Made by a program: the position numbers and the translations under genes. From Corallococcus sp. CA053C (GTDB lineage Bacteria; Myxococcota; Myxococcia; Myxococcales; Myxococcaceae): a stretch of 34,675 nucleotides of DNA. Every line of letters begins with the position of its first letter. The first letter of the stretch is position 1. This document shows positions 24,347 to 25,984 of the stretch, in pieces. The notes under the pieces were generated by a model. It made no database searches. It worked only from the letters and a program-made list of their open reading frames with translations, and was not told the DNA's origin. Where the stretch lies: positions 1-34,675 of the forward strand of contig NZ_RAWA01000053.1 in assembly GCF_003611675.1 (NCBI RefSeq), given 5' to 3'.

Positions 24347-25984
24347 ATGACCGTCTCCAGCCTCCGCGTCCGTTCGGGCGACACCCTCACCGCGATTGCG
24401 AAGCGCAACGACACGACGGTGGCGGCCCTGGCCAAGGCCAACAACATCAAGGACCCGGACCGCATCCGCGCGGGGCAGACGCTGCGCATCCCGGACGGCT
24501 TCGACACGAAGCCCGCGCGCGGCACGAGCACGAAGCCGGCCACCAACACCACCTCCAAGCCGGCGACGTCCAACACGGGCGGGACGAAGGCGACGGACAC
24601 CACCAAGCAGACCACGGCGCCGGCGGGCGGCGGTGAGCTGGGCGGGCTGAGCCGCAAGTACGAGGCGCGCGGTCCCGGCACGGTGTCCACGGGCAAGGGC
24701 GACCACGGCGGCGTGTCCTACGGATCCTACCAGTTCGCGTCGGCGAACGGGTCCGCGCAGTCGTTCGTGAACTCGCTGAAGAAGAGCAACCCGGACTACT
24801 ACTCGGCGCTGTCGGGCAGCAAGCCGGGCTCGGAGGCGTTCTCCAACGCGTGGAAGCAGCTGGCGGCGAAGGACCCCAAGGGCTTCGACAAGGCGCAGCA
24901 CGACTACATCAAGGCCACGCACTACGACGTGGGCGCCGCGAACATCAAGAAGGCGACGGGCATCGACCTGAACACGCGGTCGGCGGCCCTGCGCGACGTG
25001 GCCTGGTCCACGTCCGTGCAGCACGGCCCGGGCGCGGCGGATGACATCTTCAAGAAGGCGCTGGCCGGCCGCGACCCCTCCAAGGTGAGCGACGAGCAGC
25101 TCATCAAGGACATCTACGCCGAGCGCGGCCGCACGAACGCCAGCGGCACCCTGGTGCACTTCTCCAGCAACTCCAAGAGCGTGCAGGAGGGCGTGGCCAA
25201 CCGCTTCAAGTCCGAGGTGAAGGACGCGCTCGCGCTGCTCAAGAAGGAGAAGGCGGGCGGCACCACGACCCCGGCCGACACGAAGCCGGCCACGAGCGAC
25301 ACGAAGCCGGCCACGAGCGGCACGAAGCCGGCCACGAGCGGCACGAAGCCGGCCACGACCAACTCCGGTTCGACGACGGGCGCCAACTCGCAGAAGCCCA
25401 CCACGGAAGTGGACCTCAACGACACGCAGACGGTGGCGCCGTCCAAGTCGGGCCCCGCGGTGCACGTGAAGGTGCCGTACTACAGCCAGTTCGAGGGAGG
25501 CCACGGCTTCACCCCGAGCAAGACCGCGTGCTTCGACGCCGCGAAGGCGATGGCCGGCAAGGTGGGCGCGCAGGTGACGGGCCCGGACAGCCGCATCCAG
25601 GTGGGCACGAGCGAGAACAGCAAGGGCCAGCTGTCGGTGAACTCCAAGAAGGCCGCCGAGGGCCGCAAGTACATCGACCAGCAGCTGGACGCCGGCAAGC
25701 CGGTGGTGGTGGGCGTCAGCCACAAGGACGCGACGTACAACGCGGACGGGCTCACGGACCACTTCGTGACCATCACGGGCCGTGGCGTCGACGACAAGGG
25801 CCGCACCTACTACACGTTCCACGACCCGGGGACGACCAACGCGAGCAAGGGCAAGGACACCAACCCCAACAACCGCTTCTACGTGGATGACAAGACGGGC
25901 GCGATGACCCGCCCCGGCAAGGCCGCGGAGGGCTACGTGACGGAGCGCCGCTACGACGTCGCGATGGTGCGCCGCAACGGGTAG
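24347..25984 (+). CDS. Multidomain putative cell-wall hydrolase: N-terminal LysM, central lysozyme/transglycosylase-like domain (tentative), PT-rich linkers, C-terminal papain-like C39-like (Peptidase_C39_2-type) cysteine peptidase domain. No signal peptide.
   Basis: LysM: LRVRSGDTLTAIAKRNDTTVAALAKANNIKDPDRIRAGQTLRIP. Central: GDHGGVSYGSYQFAS, loosely Rpf/GH-like and low confidence. C-terminal: VPYYSQFEGGHGFTPSKTACFDAAKAM (YYSQ...C), then DHFVTITG (His) and YYTFHDPG, typical of C39-like domains. TKPATS(D/G) x4 tandem repeat linker. Confidence 0.65.
   Translation: MTVSSLRVRSGDTLTAIAKRNDTTVAALAKANNIKDPDRIRAGQTLRIPDGFDTKPARGTSTKPATNTTSKPATSNTGGTKATDTTKQTTAPAGGGELGGLSRKYEARGPGTVSTGKGDHGGVSYGSYQFASANGSAQSFVNSLKKSNPDYYSALSGSKPGSEAFSNAWKQLAAKDPKGFDKAQHDYIKATHYDVGAANIKKATGIDLNTRSAALRDVAWSTSVQHGPGAADDIFKKALAGRDPSKVSDEQLIKDIYAERGRTNASGTLVHFSSNSKSVQEGVANRFKSEVKDALALLKKEKAGGTTTPADTKPATSDTKPATSGTKPATSGTKPATTNSGSTTGANSQKPTTEVDLNDTQTVAPSKSGPAVHVKVPYYSQFEGGHGFTPSKTACFDAAKAMAGKVGAQVTGPDSRIQVGTSENSKGQLSVNSKKAAEGRKYIDQQLDAGKPVVVGVSHKDATYNADGLTDHFVTITGRGVDDKGRTYYTFHDPGTTNASKGKDTNPNNRFYVDDKTGAMTRPGKAAEGYVTERRYDVAMVRRNG
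25277..25360 (+). repeat. 4 x 21-nt perfect/near-perfect in-frame tandem repeat (gac/ggc acg aag ccg gcc acg agc) encoding (D/G)TKPATS x4 within the LysM-peptidase gene
   Basis: Direct reading of 25277-25360. The units differ only at the first codon (gac or ggc) and in the last unit (acc for agc). Confidence 0.8.

Follow-up and report, generated by a model that had tools for sequence, protein, structure and literature searches.

A divergent gene pair of Corallococcus sp. CA053C predicted to encode a two-enzyme cell-wall toxin and a two-module periplasmic immunity protein

The analysed DNA is a 34,675-nucleotide stretch of Corallococcus sp. CA053C (contig NZ_RAWA01000053.1, positions 1 to 34,675 of the forward strand), which is referred to below as the window. 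It contains two genes that are transcribed away from each other. The gene on the plus strand encodes a protein composed of a LysM domain and two putative cell-wall hydrolases, and we propose that it is an antibacterial toxin. Its neighbour on the minus strand, which had been overlooked in the preliminary description of this DNA, encodes an exported protein that probably confers immunity to the toxin. The pair and its non-coding surroundings are composed of the following features.

23120–24154, minus strand: predicted cognate immunity gene (hypothetical protein D7V97_10055), 344 amino acids, Sec signal peptide, eight invariant cysteines
24155–24346, no strand: putative shared divergent control region, lowest-GC spot of the window, strongly conserved
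24347–25984, plus strand: predicted toxin gene, 545 amino acids, signal-less LysM / VgrG3-like muramidase / BtaeB-like cysteine peptidase
24365–24493, plus strand: LysM peptidoglycan-binding domain, residues 7–49 (PF01476, E 1.6e-16, 60.4 bits, above the Pfam gathering score of 20.9)
24494–24637, plus strand: linker 1, residues 50–97, rich in Thr, Gly, Ala, Lys and Pro
24638–25216, plus strand: VgrG3-type (chitosanase/lysozyme-fold) predicted muramidase domain, residues 98–290 (PF21277), putative catalytic Glu106 and Asp119
25217–25462, plus strand: linker 2, residues 291–372, recognised by composition, contains the tandem repeat 25276–25358
25463–25981, plus strand: BtaeB-CTD-type (C-terminal domain of BtaeB) papain-like predicted cysteine peptidase/amidase domain, residues 373–545, putative triad Cys395, His472 and Asp493
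26003–26060, no strand: long GC-rich hairpin between convergent stop codons, putative bidirectional terminator

The open reading frame of the toxin starts with ATG and has a GC content of 0.98 at third codon positions. An in-frame TGA at 24332–24334 is located five codons upstream of the start, and therefore the toxin cannot have a longer N-terminus. The Corallococcus sp. CA053C entry RKH11879.1 / WP_120610394.1, annotated as a "LysM peptidoglycan-binding domain-containing protein", shows 100% identity to the product. Neither a signal peptide nor a membrane segment was found: the highest mean Kyte-Doolittle hydropathy is 0.62 in the first 70 residues (12-residue window) and 0.51 over the whole protein (19-residue window). 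The preliminary description had proposed both the absence of an N-terminal signal peptide and the order of domains, with a LysM, a linker, a central domain, a linker with four TKPATS repeats and a papain-like C-terminus, and our results bear out both. Linker 1 varies in length and sequence among orthologues, some of which carry a second LysM there. Linker 2 has a similar composition, rich in Thr, Pro, Lys, Gly and Ala, and its 21-nt tandem repeat (4.0 copies, 98% matches, Tandem Repeats Finder) encodes (D/G)TKPATS four times. A 619-residue antisense reading frame that spans the entire toxin gene (24284–26143, minus strand) is an Arg/Ala/Gly-rich shadow frame typical of high-GC DNA, and we do not consider it a gene.

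The central domain belongs to the family T6SS_VgrG3-like_C (PF21277; E 4.7e-53, 180.3 bits against a cut-off of 27, profile positions 1–182 of 183). Residues 98–253 match the C-terminal domain of Vibrio cholerae VgrG3 among the Protein Data Bank (PDB) sequences (4noo_A/4nso_A, phmmer E 2e-27; 2.3e-27 for 4noo_A). Glu106 and Asp119, conserved in all but one of the aligned VgrG3-like orthologues, correspond to residues 15 and 30 of chain 4noo_A, which we take to be the catalytic pair E827/D842 of VgrG3, provided that the 205-residue chain spans residues 813–1017. The domain may thus cut the glycan strands of murein with muramidase specificity. The GGVSYGSYQF motif, which had been likened to resuscitation-promoting factors (Rpf) and lysozyme-like folds, is the conserved core of the PF21277 domain and directly follows the catalytic Asp. 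The domain is thus VgrG3/chitosanase-like and not Rpf-like. The toxin is not an evolved VgrG spike effector: it contains no VgrG, gp5 or gp27 domain, and its N-terminus is the LysM. The name "VgrG-related protein", given in UniRef, results from the C-terminal homology only.

The VgrG3-like domain also matches inner regions of phrog_34863 and phrog_26249 (E about 1e-41), which are giant phage protein families of unknown function with profiles of 966 and 1925 positions. The VgrG3-like fold is thus also employed by phages. The protein could thus be a prophage-derived endolysin or a virion-associated lysin, considering that its LysM region matches endolysin PHROGs and that endolysins have no signal peptides and often combine a LysM with two catalytic domains. 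However, no phage gene is present in the window or in orthologous loci, the gene is not part of a lysis cassette, and a scan of 2.9 million viral contigs produced matches to the LysM only and none to the catalytic domains. Furthermore, the partner gene matches no PHROG, several genera stably maintain the gene pair, and an endolysin has no need of a periplasmic immunity protein. We rejected the identification of the protein as an endolysin, and a phage origin is hardly tenable.

The C-terminal domain is related to that of the Bacteroides fragilis effector BtaeB. Residues 373–518 match the PDB chains 9jdd_A and 9jg8_C (E 2e-20), which are named "Peptidase C39-like domain-containing protein", and the matched part of the 617-residue chain 9jg8_C is limited to residues 436–592. 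The Cys and His of BtaeB are matched by Cys395 and His472, which do not vary among 51 sequences, and Asp493 is nearly invariant in the family. Based on the sequence and fold similarity and on the conserved Cys and His, the domain belongs to the BtaeB-CTD toxin family, and, as in the case of BtaeB, a protein of the BtaiB immunity type is encoded next to it. In Pfam, the C-terminus has a sub-threshold match to BtrH_N only. The C39-like label given to the domain previously is correct at the level of the papain-like clan but not as a family, since neither a profile match nor a specific structural closeness to peptidase family C39 (PF03412; PF13529, C39_2) was found. The domain is predicted to cut peptide stems or cross-links of murein as a peptidase or amidase.

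The divergent partner starts with a Sec signal peptide, the Kyte-Doolittle score of which is 2.35, compared to the maximum of 0.62 in the toxin. The protein has no Pfam or PHROG match and is a fusion of two modules, module A (approximately residues 30–205) and module B (approximately residues 210–340). We compared 45 genome loci holding relatives of the toxin by a tblastn table. Full-length orthologues of the toxin are present in Corallococcus, Cystobacter, Archangium, Pyxidicoccus, Stigmatella and Myxococcus sp. In the genome scan, the partner is positioned directly upstream of and divergent from the toxin gene in 19 of 20 loci with the LysM, VgrG3-like and peptidase domains; these loci are from Corallococcus, Cystobacter, Archangium, Pyxidicoccus and Myxococcus sp. 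When the window itself and a further Corallococcus sp. locus (L053) are added, the partner adjoins the toxin in 21 of 22 three-domain loci. The one locus without it is a second copy, and its genome holds a complete pair as well. The partner is absent from approximately 26 loci of other architectures, which have a different central domain or the peptidase alone. The search for an adjacent immunity gene in orthologous loci, which the preliminary description had put forward as a check, thus gave a positive result. No other neighbour is conserved beyond Corallococcus, and the vault-like gene and the downstream genes are kept only within this genus. In other genera, the identity of the partner is 44–55%, as opposed to 66–81% for the toxin domains, and therefore the partner diverges faster. 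In Corallococcus sp. RDP092CA (L047:6889–7192), the last 64 codons of the toxin gene abut the last 40 codons of the immunity gene. One deletion took the 5' parts of both genes together with the spacer.

Two other immunity candidates were rejected. The convergent Cys-rich lipoprotein gene downstream of the toxin (26070–26930) is conserved only in C. llansteffanensis, and what looks like a lipoprotein 3' of the second copy in Myxococcus sp. RHSTA-1-4 (L033) is a methyltransferase whose upstream start is false.

The two modules of the partner also occur apart. The comparison of the partner profile to 1.84 billion representative proteins resulted in 141 matches, only about eight of which are full length. 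Most of the matches are standalone secreted proteins of approximately 200 residues, which cover profile positions 10–200 (module A), and about 20 are proteins of approximately 155–180 residues covering positions 205–340 (module B). The gene of the module A protein P0212 overlaps by 4 nt with the stop of a gene for a 668-residue VgrG3-like_C protein, and on three contigs that of P0220 is located 30 nt 3' of a gene whose product has a VgrG3-like domain at its end. The module B protein P0218 is encoded 70 nt from a divergent gene for a 242-residue peptidase-only toxin, which is 64% identical to the C-terminus of the toxin from the window (E 3e-86). Since each module travels with one toxin domain, we read the pair as a double toxin whose immunity protein is correspondingly double. 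The fused partner carries the modules in the same order as the corresponding domains of the fused toxin.

The best structural match of the second half of the partner is BtaiB, the immunity protein of BtaeB, a match that was assigned to module B by its length and by the pairing at locus L056, with the aligned model domain unreported. Neither BtaiB nor TsiV3, the immunity protein of VgrG3, was matched when the partner profile was compared to PDB sequences, and the two barrels of the partner share no sequence similarity with each other. No copy of either module was detected by tblastn and module hidden Markov models near the VgrG3-only, peptidase-only or Myxococcus xanthus-type loci examined. From the module pairing, the partner would be expected to inhibit the toxin.

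Module A is duplicated in tandem in the 538-residue protein P0217 and forms the C-terminal part of longer secreted proteins whose N-terminal regions are of other kinds (among P0217, P0230, P0244, P0249, P0271 and P0277). These duplications and fusions hint at the existence of more fused multi-immunity proteins.

The peptidase domain is reused behind differing N-termini. A distant copy forms the C-terminal tip of a 2073-residue DUF6443/RHS-repeat protein from a metagenome-assembled genome (MAG) of Bacteroidetes (L048:1229–7450), and elsewhere the module is fused to LysM, PG_binding_1 or CHAP domains, or bears a Sec signal. Copies from actinobacterial MAGs, including Nakamurella (L037:6578–7531, L038:6689–7540 and L040:6578–7549), are 56–58% identical to the myxobacterial peptidase domain, so that the M. 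xanthus paralogues, with 52–57% identity, are no closer than the actinobacterial ones. The peptidase of the actinobacterial copies follows an N-terminal region of approximately 95 residues with a WxG motif, which has a WXG100 match with an E value of 0.02 only and no PDB match. These copies suggest a transfer between phyla and possibly a head of the type VII secretion type. With its linked, fast-diverging partner and the module-to-module pairing, the toxin has the properties of polymorphic toxin-immunity systems, and to judge from the sequences the peptidase module behaves as a polymorphic-toxin cassette. In a Mucilaginibacter MAG (L049:6131–9426), the gene of a 430-residue carrier of the module is followed by three small signal-peptide genes, an arrangement that resembles an immunity array; BtaiB-like sequences were not recovered from this locus.

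M. xanthus-type paralogues retain the LysM and peptidase domains and contain a domain of approximately 230 residues in place of the VgrG3-like domain (L002:8001–9623; L023, L025–L032, L034, L036 and L046; the homologue in strain DK1622 is ABF89521.1 / Q1DEU1). Their central domain has no Pfam or PDB match. Signal-less LysM and VgrG3-like genes are also present in two other Gram-negative genomes (L054:8001–10363 and L055:8001–9682). The next genes, 18 and 60 nt further on, encode lipoproteins of 224 and 167 residues that are unrelated in sequence to module A. The L054 locus continues with TIR (ThsB-like) and pNTSase1 defence genes. The Corallococcus sp. locus L053 (CP114039.1, 2963–6849) is larger: behind the immunity gene and the three-domain toxin, after 210 nt and on the same strand, it also encodes P0122, a 282-residue LysM and peptidase paralogue. 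A literature search found no publication on this myxobacterial toxin family, and the literature on Lysobacter LssL turned out to be unrelated to it.

The 192-nt spacer between the two start codons had been singled out previously as an unusually AT-rich divergent region, and it is the only place in the window where a segment of this length reaches such a low GC content (0.536, compared to 0.694 for the whole window). Its mean column identity across nine Corallococcus species is 85% and exceeds that of the flanking coding DNA (alignment A5). The spacer holds long invariant blocks among these species, such as GAAACTGAAGTT and GGAATCACTGGTTT, and its consensus carries an 18-bp palindrome, CAGCGGATCGATCCGCTG, which is imperfect in the window (24189–24206). 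The palindrome and the conservation suggest an operator shared by the two genes. An inverted-repeat search of the spacer gave no match, and no sigma-70 promoter or terminator consensus was matched between 23900 and 26300. Behind the toxin gene, a 96-nt stretch including the hairpin 26003–26060 folds at −61.9 kcal/mol (z −7.6), and none of 200 shuffled sequences was as stable. The strong bidirectional terminator proposed there is thus real as a hairpin, and its terminator role is putative, considering that the hairpin has no canonical T-run and that the consensus scan calls no terminator.

We propose that the divergent pair is a self-contained antibacterial toxin-immunity module, with carriage by a type VI secretion system (T6SS) as the most likely vehicle, and we estimate the probability of this reading to be roughly two in three (0.68). 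The toxin-immunity relationship taken alone is highly probable. The domain homologies and the adjacent immunity gene also support the earlier suggestion of a cell-wall-targeting effector, which may serve in prey lysis or in competition with kin or rival bacteria. The N-terminal LysM would hold the toxin on peptidoglycan, and the two flexible Thr/Pro/Lys-rich linkers may allow both enzymes to act on one patch of the cell wall, where the VgrG3-type muramidase would cut glycan strands and the BtaeB-type peptidase or amidase would cut peptide stems or cross-links. Murein as the target is presumed from the domain homologies. The partner is probably exported by Sec to the periplasm and stabilised there by disulfides, so that module A could neutralise the muramidase, and module B, a predicted lipocalin-like barrel of the BtaiB type, the peptidase. 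The toxin would be delivered from cell to cell, most likely as a T6SS cargo effector.

Several observations weigh against this reading. Neither the 34.7-kb window nor the annotated flanks of related loci (L001, L002, L003 and L050–L055) contain a T6SS structural, VgrG, PAAR or adaptor gene. The immunity gene is divergent, and the usual position of such a gene is downstream and co-directional. No partner is detectable near the M. xanthus-type paralogues and some LysM and peptidase genes, and the assignment of the BtaiB match to module B is indirect. The module B protein P0276 has no toxin gene alongside, on a contig of 1.2 kb that is uninformative. Finally, acidobacterial LysM-VgrG3-like genes are found in housekeeping contexts, for example beside alanine racemase, with no obvious immunity gene.

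The acidobacterial genes are consistent with a different explanation, in which the protein is a housekeeping or developmental autolysin, acting in growth, sporulation or germination and restrained by its neighbour as a periplasmic regulator. LysM hydrolases are often autolysins, and the toxin has weak NCBIfam matches to DipM, ActS and SafA. However, these matches are limited to the LysM and do not come near the cut-offs of the families (45.6 as opposed to 900 in one case), and the toxin has no route to the periplasm. Moreover, the patchy distribution and shuffled modules, with the central domain swapped in M. xanthus, tandem paralogues in one genome and a clean deletion in one Corallococcus strain, do not fit a housekeeping role, and both toxin domains and both partner modules are in toxin or immunity families. 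We consider an autolysin very unlikely.

The route of export is less certain than the toxin-immunity relationship itself. The periplasmic location of the antidote implies that the toxin has to reach the periplasm of sister cells, and therefore that it is delivered from cell to cell. No linkage to vgrG, hcp, PAAR or adaptor genes and no T6SS marker motif was found, and since the LysM starts at residue 7, there is no room for an N-terminal T6SS marker. The window and the annotated flanks of related loci are also free of phage genes and of genes for extracellular contractile injection systems. All inspected homologues that carry a LysM, a CHAP or no additional domain lack a signal peptide. Sec signals occur in a few relatives of the peptidase domain from Myxococcota, and therefore the peptidase module is not tied to one route. 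By analogy with related effectors, T6SS cargo is our best guess for the export of the toxin, held tentatively and at somewhat less than even odds; vesicle release, lysis or a predation-specific apparatus is the main alternative.

The same toxin-immunity pair could thus operate without a T6SS, through outer-membrane vesicles, bacteriocin-style lysis of a subpopulation, or the predation apparatus (Kil or the needle-less type III secretion system, T3SS*). The toxin would then act from outside on exposed peptidoglycan, chiefly that of Gram-positive prey, and the immunity protein would shield producers when vesicles fuse with kin or when the toxin crosses their envelope. No locus examined contains a linked T6SS gene, a LysM at the N-terminus together with long linkers rich in Thr and Pro is typical of enzymes acting on exposed cell walls, secreted hydrolases are abundant in the window, and the Sec signals of some peptidase relatives point in the same direction. 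Pesticin/Pim and colicin M/Cmi also pair a signal-less toxin with an oppositely oriented periplasmic immunity gene, a likeness that we count in favour of this explanation. However, no lysis or holin gene adjoins the pair, both toxin domains have relatives that are delivered by T6SSs, and LysM-bearing T6SS effectors exist in Myxococcus. In addition, action from outside on Gram-positive prey gives no obvious need for a periplasmic two-module antidote. We regard delivery without a T6SS as unlikely, albeit deserving consideration. We further speculate that LysM-headed, signal-less two-enzyme toxins are substrates of the Tad-like Kil system, the needle-less T3SS* or an undescribed route with the LysM as the loading handle, although we find this improbable. 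If it were true, the toxins would be the long-sought lytic effectors that dissolve prey after contact, and a swarm of predators would be kept from dissolving itself by the matched two-module immunity protein.

The surroundings of the pair are rich in hydrolase genes. The run at 13470–20678 and 29717–30709 encodes a prolyl oligopeptidase of family S9, a D-Ala-D-Ala carboxypeptidase of family S13 with a long extension at its N-terminus, a tandem pair of GDSL lipases and a protein with an SLT domain. The SLT gene is located directly 3' of the toxin gene in C. sicarius (L006), and two extra genes (26070–26930 and 26860–28668) separate them in the window. The gene at 20836–23115 (plus strand), separated at its end by 5 nt from the immunity gene's stop, encodes a 759-residue bacterial homologue of the eukaryotic major vault protein (MVP), in which Vault repeats and the MVP shoulder domain were recognised (E 1e-20 to 5e-45). 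This gene is found near the pair only in Corallococcus.

To our knowledge, the proteins described as effectors of killing and kin discrimination in myxobacteria are very few. The pair, annotated only as a "LysM domain-containing protein" and a "hypothetical protein", becomes a concrete and testable toxin-immunity module. The analysis defines two candidate families of immunity domains, with module A directed at muramidases of the VgrG3 type and module B at peptidases of the BtaeB type, and with their help dozens of similar pairs from soil bacteria may be annotated. The pair also illustrates how an arsenal may evolve, as toxin domains known from the T6SSs of Vibrio and Bacteroides are fused in one protein and the two predicted antidotes are fused in the same order. 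A murein-binding protein that cuts both glycan and peptide would be a candidate enzybiotic scaffold. Because the pair has neither a secretion signal on the toxin nor linked T6SS genes, it is a handy probe of toxin export in myxobacteria.

The proposed module can be compared to characterised systems. VgrG3 of V. cholerae N16961 is a T6SS-delivered, cell-wall-targeting effector with a lysozyme-like domain, which degrades the cell wall from the periplasm and is neutralised by a periplasmic immunity protein (PMC9927483). The C-terminal domain of VgrG3, known together with TsiV3 from PDB entries 4NOO and 4NSO, is homologous to the central domain of the toxin, which keeps the Glu/Asp pair aligned to E827/D842. 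BtaeB (Bfe7) is described as a B. fragilis T6SS effector that is secreted with BtpeA via the adaptor BtapC (PMC13402684, citing Li et al. 2025, Cell Host Microbe 33:1901). Unlike the 617-residue, BtapC-loaded BtaeB, which is encoded inside a T6SS locus, the toxin described here lacks a BtapC-binding N-terminus, and no T6SS or adaptor gene is present in the window. In comparison to BtaiB, known with the BtaeB toxin domain from PDB entry 9JDD, module B is fused to a second module and is similar in fold only.

In Tae17 of Acinetobacter baumannii, flexible linkers connect Ig-like, LysM, lytic transglycosylase and amidase domains, and the N-terminal region of Tae17 including the LysM docks on VgrG17 (PMC11796386). 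The toxin has the same modular design with flexible linkers, a LysM, one glycan-cleaving and one peptide-cleaving enzyme. However, the enzymes of Tae17 are a lytic transglycosylase and an amidase, whereas those of the toxin are a VgrG3-type muramidase and a BtaeB-type cysteine peptidase. In addition, the toxin has neither the N-terminal Ig-like domain that docks on VgrG17 nor a vgrG gene next to its own. Tse4 and Aeromonas TseP are further bifunctional peptidoglycan-degrading T6SS cargo effectors. In M. xanthus, the LysM-bearing toxin TsxE and its immunity protein TsxI (MXAN_5572/5571) mediate T6SS-dependent killing of siblings (PMC5801462). TsxE has an amidohydrolase-2 domain, and its gene is located directly 3' of vgrG2 with a co-directional immunity gene, whereas the pair described here is orphan, divergent and equipped with two enzymes. 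Staphopain and staphostatin are a papain-like protease and its beta-barrel inhibitor; staphostatin guards the cytoplasm against a protease secreted by Sec, whereas in the myxobacterial pair the toxin has no signal peptide and the predicted inhibitor is the exported partner. The pair extends the known theme of bifunctional cell-wall effectors and their immunity proteins, represented by Tae17, Tse4, VgrG3/TsiV3 and BtaeB/BtaiB, to a form uncharacterised in myxobacteria.

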